Assembly: GCA_043778225.1 (NCBI GenBank)
Contig: JAYWGM010000028.1
Coordinates: forward strand, 32,001 to 96,000
DNA: 64,000 bases
Origin: Deinococcales bacterium
GTDB taxonomy: Bacteria; Deinococcota; Deinococci; Deinococcales; JAAFIG01
Direction: 5' to 3'
Part shown: positions 2,848 through 9,465 of the stretch, in pieces
Layout of the letters: every line of letters starts with the position of its first letter
How positions within the stretch are numbered: position 1 is the stretch's first letter
The notes under the pieces: model-generated
Database searches by the model: none
What the model saw: only the letters and a program-made list of their open reading frames with translations
Told to the model about the DNA's origin: nothing
Translations under genes and position numbers: made by a program

Positions 2848-2989
2848 CGATGACCAGCACGACGACCACACCCACGAAATCGCTGGGGTGCGGGTTGGCG
2901 AAAAAAATGTACCAACTTCGGTGATTGCTGTTTTTATCTTTGTTGCATTTATCGCCCTGATTTCTTGGATTGCACCACAGGGGTTTTAA
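2834..2989 (+). CDS. 51-aa membrane peptide resembling the CcoP N-terminal domain (not in the ORF track)
   Basis: RBS AGAGGTGA; translates MAQNNDDQHDDHTHEIAGVRVGEKNVPTSVIAVFIFVAFIALISWIAPQGF; its stop overlaps the next ATG (TAATG). Confidence 0.7.
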   Translation: MAQNNDDQHDDHTHEIAGVRVGEKNVPTSVIAVFIFVAFIALISWIAPQGF

Positions 2990-3993
2990 TGAAAAAACTT
3001 TTATCCCTATTGCTTTTCTCGAGCCTTGCCGCCTGTAGTCTGCCGAGCGATGCCAATAATCCAGCCAAAGAAGCTGCCAAAAAAGGTGTTTTATATATTC
3101 GTGAAGGCGAAAAGCCACTCGAGTTAAAACCCGAAGAAGGCGCATACGACTGGAAATACCCCAAGTACCCAGAAGATTACAAAGTTGACTTGAGCAACCG
3201 CGACCAAAACAACGCCACCTATATGTCTGGGCGCGAAATCACTTATCGTGCCAAAACCGACGGGCAACACAAAATGGACACCGCTCTTGCCGAAGCTGGT
3301 TCGTATGCCGGTCCATGGCTCGAGGGCGAGGACACTTTACTTTTGCCAGTTGCCAATCCCAATATCATCCTTGGTGATGCTTTGATTAAAACCTTGGGGG
3401 CAGAAATTACCAACGAGATGATGCCAGCGCTCGAGGAAAGCCCATTCCAAGCCTTTTTGAAATTGCGTGAACTTGGTAAAGATGCAGAAGGTAAGCACCG
3501 CACCGTCACGATTTCCTTAACTGGTGTGACCAATCCCTCGAGCGGACAAGCCGAAGTTGCCGAATACGATGTCCAACTTGATAAAGAGGCGCTATGGAGC
3601 ATTACCTATGCGCTCTATCGCAAAATTCAGCCCGATTTTAGTTTGCGAATTGGCACAAAAGACAATCCTAAGGCGAAAGTAGATGGGGCTTTAATTTATG
3701 GCAACTGCAATATGTGCCACGGCTCAGACGGTTGGGGTTTAGGAAAAAGTGGTCATAAGTTGCAGCCACATCCAGCCAATTTCCATGAGCCACGGCGTTT
3801 ATTTAATCGCTCGGATACAAAACTGCGTGAAGTTCTCAAGCATGGTGTCTATGGAAGCGCCATGCCACCATGGAATGATAAGCTCTCGGAAGCCGAGATT
3901 AACCATGTGGTGGCATACATCCGTTCTTTTTCGTACACCCTCGAGCCACCAGTTTTGAATGTCAAGCCACGTTTTAAGGGAGGTCAGCCATGA
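2989..3993 (+). CDS. lipoprotein c-type cytochrome with a C-terminal class I cytochrome c domain
   Basis: Signal peptide with lipobox LAAC; CNMCH heme motif; GSAMPPW axial Met region. Confidence 0.85.
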   Translation: MKKLLSLLLFSSLAACSLPSDANNPAKEAAKKGVLYIREGEKPLELKPEEGAYDWKYPKYPEDYKVDLSNRDQNNATYMSGREITYRAKTDGQHKMDTALAEAGSYAGPWLEGEDTLLLPVANPNIILGDALIKTLGAEITNEMMPALEESPFQAFLKLRELGKDAEGKHRTVTISLTGVTNPSSGQAEVAEYDVQLDKEALWSITYALYRKIQPDFSLRIGTKDNPKAKVDGALIYGNCNMCHGSDGWGLGKSGHKLQPHPANFHEPRRLFNRSDTKLREVLKHGVYGSAMPPWNDKLSEAEINHVVAYIRSFSYTLEPPVLNVKPRFKGGQP

Positions 3994-4039
3994 ACCTGAT
4001 ACTCAAGGCAAAATACCCGATTCTCAAGGGAGGTCAGCC

Positions 4040-4693
4040 ATGATTGACCGCAGAAGCATCATCAAGGGCATCACCATTCTGCCCTTATTGGCGGTGGCTG
4101 GTGGAATCGGTACGGCGCTTTTGTCGTACTTAAAACCAACTTGGAAACCTCTTGCATTGCCAGTCACCGAAAAACCACTCAATAAAGACAAAGTAATTGG
4201 TACACTCGAGGAATTTGATAAGGATTATGCCTTTAAGGAGTTTATTTTTACGCAAATCACGGTCGAGTACACGGCTCGAGGACGGGCTGCGACCGATATT
4301 TTGGGCTATGCGGTGCGTGTCCCGAACGACAAATTAGCCGCCGCCGATGTCGGTGTTGGTCCGAGCGGCTTGCGGCGTGGTTACGGCGAAACAGATTACA
4401 ACGGTCAGAAGTACAGCATCGTGGTGGTCTCGAGAATTTGCGCGCACTTGGGTTGTATTTTTGAGTATCACCTCCCAGCCGAGGTTTGTAGCGGCTTTAA
4501 TTATTGTGGTGGTTCAACCCCGATGTTTTCTTGTCCATGCCACTTATCGGTCTATGACCCAGCCCAAAAACAAGATGTGGCGGGGGCTGGCACATTGCCG
4601 GGCAAGGTTGTTTCCGGTCCTGCACCACGCACCCCGTTCCCATTTGATTTTGAGATTAAAGGCAATGAAATTATTGTCAAGAGCTACGGTTAA
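4040..4693 (+). CDS. qcrA: Rieske [2Fe-2S] subunit of a Rieske/cytochrome b complex
   Basis: Tat-like DRRSIIK plus TM; boxes CAHLGC and CPCHLSVY; GPAPR. RBS GGAGG precedes ATG 4040. Confidence 0.9.
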   Translation: MIDRRSIIKGITILPLLAVAGGIGTALLSYLKPTWKPLALPVTEKPLNKDKVIGTLEEFDKDYAFKEFIFTQITVEYTARGRAATDILGYAVRVPNDKLAAADVGVGPSGLRRGYGETDYNGQKYSIVVVSRICAHLGCIFEYHLPAEVCSGFNYCGGSTPMFSCPCHLSVYDPAQKQDVAGAGTLPGKVVSGPAPRTPFPFDFEIKGNEIIVKSYG

Positions 4694-4704
4694 GGAGGAA
4701 TACT

Positions 4705-6015
4705 ATGGCAGCCCCAGCAATTCCCGCAAAAAAAGCTGTTCCCAATATCGGGCAGAAAGTTGCCCAGTGGTGGACAAAAAGCGCTCGCAACTTAGATTTA
4801 TTCGATGAAAACCAAACCGATAAAGTCTTAAACGACCCATGGTATATGCTCGGCGGAATGGCGTTGCTGTTTTGGTATATCACCATTGCAACTGGTACAG
4901 TGCTGATGTTTTATTATGTGCCAGACACGTATCAGGCATGGCGCAGTGTGCGTGGCATTTTTGAAGGCGAACAGGGATTTTGGATTGCCTTGATTCGCAA
5001 TATGCACAAATACGGCGCGGATGCACTGATTATTGCCCTGACGATGCGAATTTATCGAATGTACTTTCGTGGTGAATTTAAGAATTATAATCAGCTTTCC
5101 TATATCGTCACGATTATTGGCTTGTTGTTAGCGATGTTCAGTGGTTTAACGGGTTACCTACTGATTTGGAATCAACGCGCCCTTTGGGCAACCAAAGTCT
5201 TTGCGACTTTCCCAACCTTTATTGACGATTTCCATAACATCCCAACCATTAAAGTCTTTATGCCTCTGGTGGCTGGTCTGCTCGAGAACACCCTCTCGAG
5301 CCTCAAAATTGGCGCTTTAACCGCCAACTTTATGTTGGCTGGACAAAGCATTGGACCTGCCACCCTGACCCGTTTTTACAGCGCTCACTTTATGCTCTCG
5401 ATTTTAGCCATTTTAGCCATCGAAGCCTATTTTGCCCGTAAAGGACGCGGTGGAAAAATCGGCGAAGCGGCGGCTGGCGGCGGCGCTGGACGTTTTAAGC
5501 GGATTAACTTGCCGTGGTTTGCCGTGGTCTTTTGCTTTGTGGTGCTGGTTGTGGTTTCGATTTGGGTACCTGTCGATACGGGCAGCCCCGCCAACTACAA
5601 CGTCACACCAAATCCGATTTTGTCCGACTGGTACTTTTTAGGCTTATACCAAATGATGAAATGGTGGCAACCTGCCGTGGCGACCTTGCAAACAATCCTT
5701 CTACCGTTGGTGGCTTTTGTGGTGGTCTTTTTGGATTACAGCCCCGAACGCAACCCATGGAAACGCCCATTCTGGACAATGGTTGGTATTTATGGCTTGG
5801 TATCGTGGTTGGCATTTAGCATCCTGATTATTCTGAACATTGCCGACATTAAACGCGACCCGCCTTACGTCTATTTGGTGAGCATGATTATGCTTGGCGC
5901 TGGGGCAATTTGGCACTGGGTATTTATGGCGGGAGAACGCAAGAAGCGTCTTAAACTCGAGGCTGAAAAAGCCGCCAAAGCCGCAATTGCGGCTGTTCCG
6001 CAAGCTGCCGATTAG
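4705..6015 (+). CDS. qcrB: cytochrome b, copy 1 (Qo-like SDWY motif; heme bH ligands absent)
   Basis: Cytochrome b motifs LGG, TGTVLMFYYVP, RNMH, TGYLLIWNQ, TLTRFYSAH, and subunit IV-like PANYNVTPNPILSDWYF. Confidence 0.88.
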   Translation: MAAPAIPAKKAVPNIGQKVAQWWTKSARNLDLFDENQTDKVLNDPWYMLGGMALLFWYITIATGTVLMFYYVPDTYQAWRSVRGIFEGEQGFWIALIRNMHKYGADALIIALTMRIYRMYFRGEFKNYNQLSYIVTIIGLLLAMFSGLTGYLLIWNQRALWATKVFATFPTFIDDFHNIPTIKVFMPLVAGLLENTLSSLKIGALTANFMLAGQSIGPATLTRFYSAHFMLSILAILAIEAYFARKGRGGKIGEAAAGGGAGRFKRINLPWFAVVFCFVVLVVVSIWVPVDTGSPANYNVTPNPILSDWYFLGLYQMMKWWQPAVATLQTILLPLVAFVVVFLDYSPERNPWKRPFWTMVGIYGLVSWLAFSILIILNIADIKRDPPYVYLVSMIMLGAGAIWHWVFMAGERKKRLKLEAEKAAKAAIAAVPQAAD

Positions 6016-6025
6016 GGGTGTAATC

Positions 6026-6328
6026 ATGAAAGGAAGCACTTGGTTATTTACGATCGCCACATTTGTGGGCGGCATCCTTGTGTTCTCGAGTGGTTATGCC
6101 GAAGTCCTGCGTTACCTCAATAGCCCGACTTGGACGGGTCTAGCAATGATTGCTTTTTGGTTGGCACTGCTGATTTTCTTTGTGGTCACACTTGGGTTTA
6201 TTATGTACGCTGTCGATCGCAAAGCGGGTAATGTTAAAGTTAAAATCGCATTTTTTGAACGGCTACTTGGTCATGATAAAGATGCCAAATTGCCAGAGTC
6301 TCGAGAAAGTAACAAGGAGAATTCATGA
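6026..6328 (+). CDS. small two-TM membrane protein in the respiratory operon
   Basis: ATG 6026 follows AGGGGTG; two hydrophobic segments; ATGA overlap with the next gene. Confidence 0.7.
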   Translation: MKGSTWLFTIATFVGGILVFSSGYAEVLRYLNSPTWTGLAMIAFWLALLIFFVVTLGFIMYAVDRKAGNVKVKIAFFERLLGHDKDAKLPESRESNKENS

Positions 6329-6693
6329 AAACAATCATCGCCATTCTGATGGTGCTAGGAGCGCTGGGCTTGACACCCCTAACCATCGGTGCGTTTGCCC
6401 ACGCCAACCCCGACTTTGGGGCGGTGGACAGCACTTTGGTGACCGAAAACCCGTACATTGTGCGCGAAGATGGAGCGCCAAGTATCCCCGCTTTTGCGGT
6501 TAGTTTGGTTAAGTTTATCCGCGACACCGAAGGTGCAATTTCTGGAGCGCTGCTGCCAAACCTTAAATCTTTCCCGTTTGAACGTGGCTTTGCCTACATG
6601 GGACTGACGGTTTTGCTGACCGCCATTGCTTCGGCACTGCTGGCGGATACACGCAGTCAAACGCTGGTCAAGCCCGGCAGGAAGGTGGCATAA
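6325..6693 (+). CDS. small membrane protein in the respiratory operon
   Basis: RBS AAGGAG; hydrophobic N- and C-terminal segments; tight operon packing. Confidence 0.7.
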   Translation: MKTIIAILMVLGALGLTPLTIGAFAHANPDFGAVDSTLVTENPYIVREDGAPSIPAFAVSLVKFIRDTEGAISGALLPNLKSFPFERGFAYMGLTVLLTAIASALLADTRSQTLVKPGRKVA

Positions 6694-6694
6694 G

Positions 6695-7882
6695 ATGGCA
6701 GGTTATAGCGCAGACCAAGCACCAACCTCGAGAGACAAAGGCTTTGATGCTGGTTTAGACAGCCTGCATAAGGGTATTGTCTCAATCGATAAAGCCATCA
6801 ACAAGGTTATCCCCGAAGAATTTAATCCATTTTATTACCTTGGTGGCATCACTAATGTCTTGTGGGTTTTACTTGTGCCATCGGGTATTTTTTTGTGGTT
6901 TTACTATAAGCCGACCACCACCGAAGCCTTCTCGAGTGTCGATTACTTAACTGTTCAGGTCTTTTTTGGTGGCGTGATTCGCGGTATTCACCGTTATGCT
7001 GGCAATGGCATGATTTTACTGGCAATTCTGCATATGTTGCGTAATTTTTTTACTGACCGCTACCGAGGTTTCCGCGATATTCCTTGGGTTTCTGGGGTTA
7101 TTTTATTGTTCTTGACTGGTTTTATCGGCTTGACTGGCTACTTATTGGTCTGGGACCAACGCGCCTTGGTGATTACGGAAGCACTGGTGCAGATTTTACG
7201 CAGCTTTGACTTGGTGATTGCTGGCTTTGGTACTTGGTTGGCACAAGGCTTAATCGGCGGCGATGAACCCAATAACCTGACGCTGGCACGAATGTTATTT
7301 TTGCACGTCGGTCCTGCTGTGTTGGTCTTTTTCTTCTTGTGGGTGCATTACTTGCGCTTACACCGACCAAAAATCTGGCCTCCAGCTTTTGTGACCCTTT
7401 TGACGATTGGCGCAGTATTGTTGGCGGCTGGTCTGTTGCCACTCGAGAAAACTTTGCCCGCTACACAACCGATTGCGGCAGGACAAGCTGCCATTGTTTA
7501 CGATATTTTTTATCTGTTGCCCGTTTTGGCGCTCTCGAGCATCAGCGCTCCTTGGATTTTGGCGATTTTATTGGTGCTGTTTGGCGTGATGTTTATTTTG
7601 CCATGGCTACCCGCCAAAAAGCATCGCTATGTCAATGTGGCAACCGTCACCCCAGAAAACTGCACTGGCTGCCAACTGTGCGCCATTGACTGCCCATTTG
7701 ACGCAATCATCATGGTGCCTGGTGCAAACCCGAATCCACGCTATACAGAATTGGCTGTGGTCAACGATGATAAATGTGCTGAATGTGGTATCTGTGTTGG
7801 GGCTTGCCCATTCCATGCAATCAATCTCCCGCTTATGGACGAATACGCGATACGCGATAAGGTGGTGGCGTTACTTAAATGA
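6695..7882 (+). CDS. cytochrome b, copy 2, fused to a 2x[4Fe-4S] ferredoxin domain
   Basis: All four heme His present (RGIH..13 aa..H, FLH..13 aa..H); C-terminal CTGCQLCAIDCP and CAECGICVGACP. Confidence 0.9.
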   Translation: MAGYSADQAPTSRDKGFDAGLDSLHKGIVSIDKAINKVIPEEFNPFYYLGGITNVLWVLLVPSGIFLWFYYKPTTTEAFSSVDYLTVQVFFGGVIRGIHRYAGNGMILLAILHMLRNFFTDRYRGFRDIPWVSGVILLFLTGFIGLTGYLLVWDQRALVITEALVQILRSFDLVIAGFGTWLAQGLIGGDEPNNLTLARMLFLHVGPAVLVFFFLWVHYLRLHRPKIWPPAFVTLLTIGAVLLAAGLLPLEKTLPATQPIAAGQAAIVYDIFYLLPVLALSSISAPWILAILLVLFGVMFILPWLPAKKHRYVNVATVTPENCTGCQLCAIDCPFDAIIMVPGANPNPRYTELAVVNDDKCAECGICVGACPFHAINLPLMDEYAIRDKVVALLK

Positions 7883-8367
7883 ATCTAGCATCCGATACAA
7901 CCCAACCCAATGTGCTTTCCCACAATGGCAAACCTAAGTTGCTTGGTTTTGTCTGTGAATGGAGCTTAGGACGAACTGACCACATCCATGAGGACGGCAC
8001 AGTCAAAGGCATGGAACACATCAAAACCCTGAAAATTCCGTGCAGTGGCTTTGTCAAAACCGAATGGGTGACAGTGGCTTTTGAAAACGGCGCTCAAGGT
8101 GTTTTTGTGCTTGGTTGCCCACTGGGCGATTGCCACTTTAACGAAGGTAATTTTATTATCAATGGGCGGCTCGAGCAACACACCGGACGGATGGTCAATC
8201 GTAAAATTATTGATGATTCTGGGCGGGTTGCCGAATTGTACTTGGGTGTGACTGGCAACAATGATTTCTTTGGTCAACTCGAGGACTTTACTAAGTACAT
8301 TGCTGCCATGCCACCGCTTGTCGTGGCAGCTAAAAAACCACGGGCGGCAGCTGCCAAAAAGGAGTAA
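7879..8367 (+). CDS. MvhD/FlpD-family iron-sulfur protein (hydrogenase delta-subunit-like)
   Basis: FVCEWS, IPCSG and GCPLGDCHFNEGN cysteine pattern of MvhD. Confidence 0.85.
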   Translation: MNLASDTTQPNVLSHNGKPKLLGFVCEWSLGRTDHIHEDGTVKGMEHIKTLKIPCSGFVKTEWVTVAFENGAQGVFVLGCPLGDCHFNEGNFIINGRLEQHTGRMVNRKIIDDSGRVAELYLGVTGNNDFFGQLEDFTKYIAAMPPLVVAAKKPRAAAAKKE

Positions 8368-8371
8368 GCAC

Positions 8372-8575
8372 ATGGAAGAGGCAACCCTAAACAATAAAAT
8401 CCTCGAGACCAGTGGTGAATCTGGTTTGGCGGTGCGTCCAGAACTTGAGCAAGTCGCAAGTACAGAAAAAGACTCCCGAGGTGTTGGTTACATTATGAAT
8501 TGGGTCAGCCTAATTTTGTTGTTTGTGATTTCGATGATTGCGATTGCTTGGTTTGGACCTTTTAGCGAAGTTTAA
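8372..8575 (+). CDS. small single-TM protein at the end of the respiratory operon
   Basis: RBS AAGGAG before ATG 8372; C-terminal TM helix. Confidence 0.6.
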   Translation: MEEATLNNKILETSGESGLAVRPELEQVASTEKDSRGVGYIMNWVSLILLFVISMIAIAWFGPFSEV

Positions 8576-8658: not shown

Positions 8659-9465
8659 ATGGCACGCTCAATTGCACAACCAGAACCGCTCGAGCCATCC
8701 AACGCGATGGGCAGTTCGCACATGAGCCAAATTGAAGTGGTCTCGATTAGTTCGTATATTCGACTCGAGAAAGGGCGATGGAAAGGAAAACCGGTTTTGG
8801 TTAAACGCCTAAAAACCTCGGTACTGAATCATCACGAGATTCTTGAGCGCTTTGAACGCGAAGCTGACGTTCTCGAGCGCCTTGACCACCCCAATATCCC
8901 AGCCCTGATTCACCGCGAAAAAGGGTTGCTGATGCGCCAATATATCGAGGGCAACACGCTCTATCATTATCTGAGTCAAGCCACCATAGACTTGAAATCC
9001 ACGCTACATATTGCCAGAGGTTTACTCTCGGCGCTGGTGCATTCTCATGTCCGCGAGATTTTGCATCTCGATGTCAAACCTGCCAATATCCTGCTCAGTG
9101 CTGACCGACGGGTGCATTTGATTGATTTTGGCTGTGCCAAAGACCTGACTTTGGACAGCATTACCCACCAAGAAGCCCGACTTGGCACACCGCATTACAT
9201 GGCACCAGAACAATTTAAGGGCATCCGCGATGACCAACGCAGCGATATTTACAGTGTTGGGGCAGTGATGTACGAATGCCTGATGGGGCAGCCACCGCAC
9301 AAAGACCCTTTTGCTTGGTTATCTGGGCGTGGGGCATTGCCCAAAGCCATGCCCACCAATAAACCGCTTGCCACCATAATCCTCAAAGCCATTCAGCGTA
9401 ACCCAGACAACCGTTATGAAGAAGCGCTCGATATGCTCGAGGCGCTAGAAGCCATCGAGGACTGA
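8659..9465 (+). CDS. Ser/Thr protein kinase (Hanks type)
   Basis: VLVK, RFERE, HLDVKPANIL, DFG, GTPHYMAPE and SDIYSVG motifs. Confidence 0.92.
   Translation: MARSIAQPEPLEPSNAMGSSHMSQIEVVSISSYIRLEKGRWKGKPVLVKRLKTSVLNHHEILERFEREADVLERLDHPNIPALIHREKGLLMRQYIEGNTLYHYLSQATIDLKSTLHIARGLLSALVHSHVREILHLDVKPANILLSADRRVHLIDFGCAKDLTLDSITHQEARLGTPHYMAPEQFKGIRDDQRSDIYSVGAVMYECLMGQPPHKDPFAWLSGRGALPKAMPTNKPLATIILKAIQRNPDNRYEEALDMLEALEAIED

Follow-up and report, generated by a model that had tools for sequence, protein, structure and literature searches.

The window analysed here is a stretch of 64,000 nucleotides from a Deinococcales bacterium, which contains a respiratory operon with two unlike cytochrome b genes. 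The first copy (b1, 4705-6015, + strand) has neither ligand of the n-side haem and retains a quinol-oxidation (Qo) motif. The second copy (b2, 6695-7882, +) retains all four haem ligands, carries a domain for two [4Fe-4S] clusters, and is followed by the gene of an MvhD/FlpD-like [2Fe-2S] protein (7879-8367, +). All coordinates are window positions. On balance, and with moderate confidence, b1 and b2 are proposed to assemble into a single asymmetric complex of the Rieske/cytochrome b type, holding three b haems and an electron path to the Fe-S arm. This architecture, in which b1 lacks the inner haem but has a Qo site and stands beside a two-haem b2 leading to Fe-S clusters, was proposed in a first-pass annotation made from the sequence alone, and it finds strong support in the comparative data.

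In cytochrome b, the first His of helix B and of helix D ligates haem bL (p-side), the second ligates haem bH (n-side), and the PEWY motif marks the Qo site. The long b1 protein matched Pfam Cytochrome_B (84.5 bits) and Cytochrom_B_C. Codon read-out gave CAC at 5005 (His101) and CGA at 5047 (Arg115) in helix B, and CAC at 5386 (His228) and TAT at 5428 (Tyr242) in helix D. A PEWY-like SDWY motif is present from residue 307. The first-pass readings of b1 were thus all reproduced. The best solved-structure match is cytochrome b6 (phmmer, E 5.5e-24), and the alignment places Arg115 opposite the second, n-side His of helix B, as had been claimed. In a profile-profile alignment of the b1 and b2 families (probability 100, E 7.9e-47, 293 columns), b1 R115 is paired with b2 H113, Y242 with H218, and SDWY with YDIF.

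Homologues of b1 were searched among 5.8 billion proteins, and 861 matches were found at E <= 1e-5. The best 120, reaching down to 39% identity, were aligned with the query. Every one of the 120 rows that cover the helix-B site has Arg or Lys there; at the helix-D site, 111 of the 121 rows have Tyr, 6 have Arg, 3 have His and 1 has Trp. The four ligand positions read HRHY (91 rows), HKHY (19), HRHR (6), HRHH (3) and HRHW (1), with one fragment, and SDWYF is found in 121/121. The 96 b1 genes taken from loci gave the same picture: Arg/Lys at the helix-B site and SDWYF in 96/96 each, with Y (62), R (17), F (11), M (2), H (2), L (1) and W (1) at the helix-D site. A further alignment of 28 sequences, 41-75% identical to the window b1, contains 53 invariant columns, including both p-side His and SDWYF. 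The named sources among the matches listed include Melainabacteria, Vampirovibrionales, Fimbriimonadaceae and Armatimonadetes; the pattern is conserved across phyla. Alternative bH ligands in b1, which the first-pass annotation had named as an observation that would count against it, were also sought. Only H101 and H228 are conserved His residues (H404 occurs in 23-74% of rows, H177 in 11-18%), and no substitute pair was found among them; Arg/Lys with a variable helix-D residue is implausible as a bis-axial pair. Decay of b1 into a pseudogene was considered and ruled out by the conservation of the ligand sites, SDWYF and the invariant columns. With the helix-B Arg/Lys and SDWYF fixed in all relatives examined, b1 has not decayed, and the loss of both n-side ligands is ancient, selected and family-wide. 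As a separate observation on the pocket of residues 50 and 115, the replacement at the helix-B site is always Arg/Lys, and the helix-A Gly (G50) stays invariant.

The b2 protein matched Pfam Cytochrome_B with 100.9 bits, and several Fer4 families at residues 337-399. Numbered from ATG 6695, it contains the four His first reported (His99, His113, His204 and His218) and eight Cys in two CxxCxxCxxxC groups (323-333 and 361-371), in agreement with the proposed 2x[4Fe-4S] domain. Two details of the first reading were corrected. The start had been placed at TTG 6626, whereas ATG 6695 is more likely; and two small membrane-protein genes (6026-6328 and 6325-6693) separate the two cytochromes. The best solved-structure match of b2 is again cytochrome b6 (phmmer, E 4.7e-33), with all four His aligned. 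A search for b2 relatives gave 312 matches, the best 120 of which were taken; four His and eight Cys are present in 119 of the 121 rows including the query, and the two exceptions are short sequences. Armatimonadetes and Holophagaceae are among the named sources of the matches listed.

The AlphaFold2 model of b2 (mean predicted local distance difference test (pLDDT) 84.5, predicted template modelling score 0.80) consists of helices A-F followed by the Fe-S domain (316-394), and its fold matches the cytochrome b of bc1 and b6f complexes. The membrane helices beyond F are missing. Given this number of helices and the topology usual for cytochrome b, the Fe-S domain is placed on the cytoplasmic side, where MvhD and cluster assembly are. 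The spacing of b2 His223 from the n-side ligand (five residues past it) is presumably that of the Qi His in bc1; this His is present in only 22-31% of relatives.

The claim that an MvhD-like gene follows copy 2 was confirmed. The product of 7879-8367, whose ATG overlaps the b2 stop codon, matched Pfam FlpD/MvhD with 73 bits (cut-off 22.3). It also matched PDB 5ODC_D (E 3.3e-15) with the C-x-W, CSG and GC-x-x-GDCH motifs aligned, so the Cys set of the FlpD-domain [2Fe-2S] cluster is present. Two relatives of b2 (P0117 and P0118) combine cytochrome b, Fer4 and FlpD (63 bits each) in one protein. Another relative (P0111) has a weaker FlpD match of 27 bits. For the C-terminal 330 residues of a 686-residue fusion (P0112), a feature search returned FlpD at 0.89, which serves as a lead only. 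These natural cytochrome b-Fer4-FlpD fusions support a link between b2 and MvhD. A search for longer proteins containing the MvhD of the window found two, both with FlpD only.

A Rieske [2Fe-2S] protein is encoded directly before b1 (4040-4693, +), with both cluster boxes, CxHxGC (CAHLGC) and CxCH (CPCHLSVY), alongside the cytochrome b genes. The open reading frame (ORF) extends upstream to 3959, but translation probably begins at ATG 4040, ahead of an RR motif resembling that of twin-arginine translocation signals. Its Pfam Rieske score is 16.5 bits, under the cut-off of 20.3; against the Rieske protein of Aquifex bc1 (6KLS_A), both cluster boxes were aligned (E 4.6e-4). In bc1 Rieske proteins, Ser and Tyr residues at two places of the second box raise the cluster potential. 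The family motif here is CPCH[LF]S[VI][YF], with Ser in 79/79 and Tyr in 68/79 sequences.

The survey of homologous operons suggested in the first-pass annotation gave a consistent arrangement. Scanning genome contigs with b2 identified 21 loci, all from Deinococcales or Deinococcota metagenome-assembled genomes, and the gene order is identical to that of the window wherever the contig extends. Scanning metagenome contigs with an alignment of diverse b1 proteins identified 80 loci. In all 54 with at least 2500 bp downstream, b2 begins 432-876 bp past b1; among the other 26, nine begin b2 at the contig end and 17 have at most 901 bp left. MvhD was found within 1.5 kb after b2 in 53 of the 54 (MvhD profile, six frames). 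Of the 83 loci that reach far enough upstream, 79 have an ORF with the Rieske motif immediately 5' of b1. The first ORF past b1 in all 78 loci having both b1 and b2 encodes a protein like the window's orfA (6026-6328, +), a small membrane protein with two predicted transmembrane helices, one invariant Tyr and no Pfam match. The orfA profile was built from the same matches, and its E-values are therefore circular; the position and length are consistent throughout. The orfA product is read as a conserved extra subunit. A second small membrane protein, orfB (6325-6693, +; no Pfam match), has an ATG overlapping the orfA stop codon. It is conserved in Deinococcales loci (34-92% identity); relatives of orfB occur in 16 of the 78 loci, and other lineages usually have some second small ORF there. 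The intergenic gaps from Rieske through MvhD are 11, 10, -4, 1 and -4 nt, packed as would be expected for translational coupling. The dependence between the two cytochromes is also one-sided, as the asymmetric complex would predict: b1 was never seen without b2 where the contig extends far enough, while b2-type fusions occur without Rieske or b1.

The following electron path is proposed for the asymmetric complex. A quinol, probably menaquinol, would be oxidised at the SDWY site of b1. The first electron would go through the Rieske protein and cytochrome c to the oxidase and O2. The second would pass onto the single p-side haem of b1. Because b1 has no n-side haem to take it, this electron would cross to the p-side haem of b2, and then be handed on, through the n-side haem of b2, to cytoplasmic Fe-S centres, namely the two [4Fe-4S] clusters and the [2Fe-2S] cluster that MvhD carries. 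The usual quinone-reducing Qi site would thereby be replaced by an Fe-S arm.

The pairing itself was examined by complex prediction, using b1, b2 and three haems, with three controls and three runs. The interaction score from aligned errors (ipSAE) was 0.54 (0.56, 0.54 and 0.54 in the runs), compared with 0.00 for the best control, and the verdict was "weak support". The runs share at least 82% of contacts, and the partner pLDDT is at least 76. Of 157 solved complexes, 116 attained the mark applied, as did 2 of 215 mismatches; at scores of 0.60 or below, only 18 of the 157 solved complexes did so, plus both of the passing mismatches. The heterodimer inferred in the first-pass annotation is weakly supported by this prediction, whose score has a possible other source that is considered below.

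Several observations weigh against the asymmetric complex, or against parts of it. The complex prediction is weak, and it may have passed because the pair resembles solved cytochrome b homodimers. In the 28-sequence alignment of b1, the helix-A Gly (G50), which normally gives the n-side haem its space, remains invariant. At the Qo-motif place of b2, Asp is invariant (74/74), and 31 of these 74 proteins have xDW[F/L], with Trp after the Asp; a second quinol site is possible in those lineages. The window b2 has YDIFY at residue 269, as first read. To say that it has no PEWY-like motif overstates the loss, because YDIF is a degenerate xDWF that retains the Asp invariant in the b2 family. In the Deinococcales loci the place reads YDIF (13), YDVF (6) or FDVV (1), and such forms were found only in this lineage; many b2 relatives in other lineages have xDWF, in which the first position is not Pro. 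The complementary pattern therefore held in homologues for one half: the ligand loss is universal for the b1 haem, while the loss of the Qo-like site of b2 appears specific to the Deinococcales. Likewise, the statement that quinol is oxidised only in copy 1 may apply to the YDIF/YDVF lineage of the Deinococcales, but not generally. In one locus (L026, 11961-12893), b2 has 311 residues without the Fe-S domain, and no MvhD follows; a remnant of the Fe-S domain was sought there in every frame, and none was found. This locus could have lost its Fe-S arm in nature, or the assembly could be at fault. A recurrent cytoplasmic acceptor gene after MvhD was not found in 11 Pfam-scanned loci or by clustering 628 downstream ORFs. 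Finally, delivering one electron per quinol to the cytoplasm needs a high-capacity return route, because the operon is the only complex III found and half of the quinol electrons would leave; none was identified.

The weak complex prediction would also fit two separate machines, which we consider possible but unlikely. In that case, b1 would form a homodimer with the Rieske protein that runs no Q cycle, its single haem being structural or a safety sink. The b2-MvhD pair would be an independent transmembrane wire, linking Fe-S carriers in the cytoplasm with cytochrome c or the oxidase on the periplasmic side, as in the Rieske-less relatives. The solved cytochrome b complexes matched here are all homodimers, in keeping with this arrangement. 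The occurrence of b2-type fusions in clusters without Rieske, described in the available part of Kao and Hunte (2014; PMC4122944), also weighs against an obligate pair; because such fusions exist, b2 can function without b1. On the other hand, b1 was not seen without b2 in any of the 54 loci. The single Rieske gene, and the small subunit between b1 and b2 in 78/78 loci, better fit a single assembly. Qo oxidation onto a dead-end haem would also favour short-circuit and superoxide reactions.

The direction of flow through the asymmetric complex might also be the reverse. A low-potential cytoplasmic donor would then reduce MvhD, the Fe-S domain and the b2 haems, and the electron would join one arriving at b1 from cytochrome c through the Rieske protein to reduce quinone (confurcation), or would simply be passed out towards the branch with the oxidase. 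The first-pass annotation, too, left room for the reverse. In principle the electron carriers can run either way, and the methanogen MvhD of the PDB 5ODC family relays hydrogenase electrons to HdrA. However, the operon is tied to an O2 reductase that keeps cytochrome c oxidised. Because it is the only quinol-to-oxygen route found in the window genome, the net flow must run from quinol outward. No gene of a donor enzyme was found nearby in the 11 Pfam-scanned loci or the downstream ORF clusters. The reverse direction is thus regarded as distinctly unlikely. It is very improbable that b1 is a degenerate paralogue without catalytic role, beside a b2 homodimer doing the redox work: two of its four haem ligands are gone, but its 53 invariant columns include the p-side His and SDWYF, its helix-B Arg/Lys is fixed, the poorer Qo motif in the Deinococcales lineage belongs to b2, and it is b2 that lacks the helices beyond F.

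The genes upstream of b1 complete the electron chain of the proposed complex. The whole set lies on the + strand between 53 and 8575. It begins with a CcoN-like haem-copper oxidase subunit I (53-1645, +; Pfam COX1, 227 bits; start codon uncertain), whose upstream place is kept in the Deinococcales loci, followed by a CcoO-type monohaem subunit with a second cytochrome c domain (1654-2577, +; Pfam FixO 125 bits, Cytochrom_C and Cytochrome_CBB3). These two adjacent genes indicate a cbb3-type (C-family) oxidase, an assignment made from the domains. Next is a monohaem cytochrome c, probably a lipoprotein (2965-3993, +; Pfam Cytochrome_CBB3, 41 bits, residues 246-319), whose translation contains the motif CNMCH and, in its signal sequence, a lipobox Cys. 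This protein is likely the carrier linking Rieske to the oxidase. From the cbb3-type oxidase through the cytochrome c and Rieske genes, b1, the one or two small membrane subunits and b2 to MvhD, the genes make up a single respiratory operon. Promoter and terminator scans of the operon gave the same counts as shuffled sequence and are hence uninformative. An exact 18-nt direct repeat was noted at 3976-3993 and 4026-4043; the first repeat spans the stop codon of the cytochrome c gene, and the second spans the ribosome-binding site and ATG 4040 of the Rieske gene.

Directly after MvhD lies a small ORF of 67 amino acids with a C-terminal hydrophobic helix (8372-8575, +). It was found by tblastn in 15 of 15 Deinococcales loci reaching past MvhD, in a comparison within that lineage; it may encode a lineage-specific subunit. 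A Ser/Thr protein kinase gene (8659-9465) follows the operon, and its position is kept in Deinococcales (12 loci in one cluster). The largest clusters of downstream ORFs are lineage-specific, namely this Ser/Thr kinase and a polyprenyl synthetase, with 12 loci each. Pfam scanning of 141 ORFs from the 11 diverse loci distinguished two contexts. Five loci resemble the window, with oxidase, FixO-cytochrome c, cytochrome c and Rieske upstream. In the other six (L050, L063, L069, L080, L090 and L100) no oxidase adjoins the module; genes for cytochrome c maturation and for a dihaem cytochrome c stand upstream, and a polyprenyl synthetase stands downstream in all six. In three of them (L050, L063 and L069), the downstream side further includes a cupredoxin and an NmrA-like protein that binds NAD(P). 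An NAD(P)-binding Fe-S flavoprotein subunit was absent from the window, the 11 diverse loci and the recurrent downstream ORF clusters.

The window genome (4.03 Mb; completeness 89%) has no PF00033 matches other than b1 and b2. It contains a single FlpD, and its one haem-copper oxidase (PF00115) is that of the operon. A cytochrome bd oxidase was not found in this 89% complete genome. As far as the incomplete genome shows, the operon appears to be the sole route from quinol to oxygen. Two proteins with four matches to the CCG domain (HdrB-like) were found; 12 of 14 control genomes match too, and the result is uninformative. Among 251 sampled Deinococcota genomes, full-length b2 (556-561 bits) was found in only 5, all from the window's own family. 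The remaining matches cover the cytochrome b part only, with at most 176 bits. Five Deinococcota genomes (G185, G170, G195, G230 and G168) gave 163-176 bits to b2 model positions ~11-290, above the level of ordinary cytochrome b matches and without the Fe-S part, in open frames of 348-410 amino acids, and these may be b2-like cytochromes b without the ferredoxin domain. Another contig of the window genome (C86; L112, 6431-18476) carries a complex-I-like operon of 11 subunits, NuoA-B-C-D-H-I-J-K-L-M-N, in which no NuoE/F/G separates D from H and NuoI is enlarged to 379 amino acids. A second, complete complex I with NuoF is found on contig C79.

A bolder scheme can be drawn from the asymmetric complex, and we hold it to be speculative and improbable. 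The complex would be a natural electron bifurcator driven by quinol, and the Q cycle would be replaced by a longer loop, from b2 through the [4Fe-4S] clusters, MvhD and a ferredoxin-type carrier to the complex I without NuoEFG, and back to the quinone pool. Such a loop might provide extra proton pumping per quinol, or ferredoxin-level reductant straight from respiration. The Ser and Tyr of the Rieske protein, beside an Asp-type Qo motif, fit this loop without proving it, as does the NuoABCDHIJKLMN operon with its enlarged NuoI. Pairing a Rieske protein of high potential with a Qo motif of the Asp type would broaden the bifurcation window, an argument made for the anammox complexes in the available part of PMC12954380. 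Melainabacteria are described in the accessible text of PMC6349859 as having a partial complex I that possibly uses ferredoxin; that Melainabacteria carry both b1 relatives and a partial complex I fits too, again without proof.

In the textbook view, complex III is a symmetric dimer that recycles one electron to quinone in the membrane. No description of an asymmetric b1/b2 pair was found in the literature searched, which left out some possibly relevant papers. If the proposed complex is real, nature would have its own version of the engineered cross-inactivated bc1 complexes, where electrons are forced across the halves. The complex would also couple quinol oxidation to soluble cytoplasmic redox chemistry in ordinary aerobes, which has so far been proposed mainly for anammox bacteria. 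The reading of respiration would then have to be revised for Melainabacteria, Armatimonadota, Acidobacteriota and the window's Deinococcales family, whose b1 and b2 genes are currently annotated as plain cytochrome b or b6. Because the operon appears to be the sole quinol-to-oxygen route, the b1-b2 mechanism would set the whole energy yield of the window organism.

The operon shares several features with the bc1, b6f and Firmicute-type bc complexes: a Rieske protein with both cluster boxes, and the cytochrome b fold in both copies. The best sequence matches are to cytochrome b6 and the best fold matches to bc1 cytochrome b; b1 further has a Qo-type motif, and a cytochrome c and oxidase follow in the electron chain. 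However, the known complexes of these kinds are homodimers with two b haems per monomer and an n-side quinone-reducing site, whereas the operon encodes two unlike cytochromes b, with three predicted b haems per pair and an Fe-S arm replacing the n-side site. The Cys for haem ci (CxGG motif) is present in neither copy; the alignments to sequences of solved structures place Met there in b1 and Tyr in b2. The Rieske/cytochrome b definition includes four His and two b haems. All four His are found in b2, and the predicted b1-b2 complex departs from the definition because b1 has two of the four haem ligands, family-wide. In the sequence set of Kao and Hunte (2014; PMC4122944), as far as the available text gives it, the four His are fully conserved except in one sequence. 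The SDWY of b1 keeps D, W and Y, and falls outside the six Qo patterns given in that text.

The copy-2 type of fusion is already known from the PDWF-FeS clade, whose proteins may be the closest known relatives of b2. As described in the available part of Kao and Hunte (2014, Genome Biol Evol, PMC4122944), this clade comprises cytochromes b with a 4Fe-4S binding domain and an MvhD domain, for example in Magnetospirillum magneticum AMB-1 as well as Turneriella parva, and its gene clusters have no Rieske protein. An xDWF-type motif is listed there as a Qo variant. The two groups share a non-Rieske Fe-S fusion, an MvhD next door or fused (P0117 and P0118), and xDWF in relatives. Judged by domains and motif, b2 differs in that MvhD is a separate gene and YDIF replaces PDWF, and in that a Rieske gene (in 79/83 loci) and b1 stand upstream. 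The part of the paper at hand describes no partner cytochrome b without n-side ligands.

The same logic has been proposed for the anammox Rieske/cytochrome b complexes, in which the low-potential quinol electron exits through the b haems to a cytoplasmic module without quinone reduction. The complexes of Kuenenia stuttgartiensis (Kartal et al. 2013) have an NAD(P) oxidoreductase subunit, according to the available part of PMC12954380. As presented there, they have no pair of unlike cytochromes b, and the partner is a large NAD(P)-binding Fe-S protein in the operon; in the window the arm ends at MvhD, with no NAD(P)-binding Fe-S gene nearby. The Complex III/IV cluster of Melainabacteria has a neighbourhood like that of the operon, with a type C oxygen reductase and "petB" and "petC" annotated as b6f subunits (PMC6349859, in its accessible text), and the b1 relatives include Melainabacteria and Vampirovibrionales. 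Missing haem ligands, a second cytochrome b, a ferredoxin domain and MvhD are not mentioned in that text. The accessible part of Dibrova et al. (2017; PMC5600118) mentions a clade G' whose cytochromes b are long and are encoded in large, conserved operons of unknown function. The "heterodimeric cytochrome b" of PMC6606698 was considered and set aside, being cytochrome bd and not a cytochrome b pair of this type.

The proposed mechanism has a functional parallel in engineered bc1 complexes. One half of these had its Qo site disabled and the other its haem path, and growth is still supported by bL-bL transfer, as reported in the available parts of PMC4152375 and PMC4330944. There, as proposed here, one half provides the quinol site and the other the n-side haem path, and the two are joined by the p-side haems. 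Those complexes are laboratory constructs with identical or nearly identical cytochromes b and a normal Qi end; the operon described here is natural, ancient and widespread, and would lead the electron to an Fe-S end.

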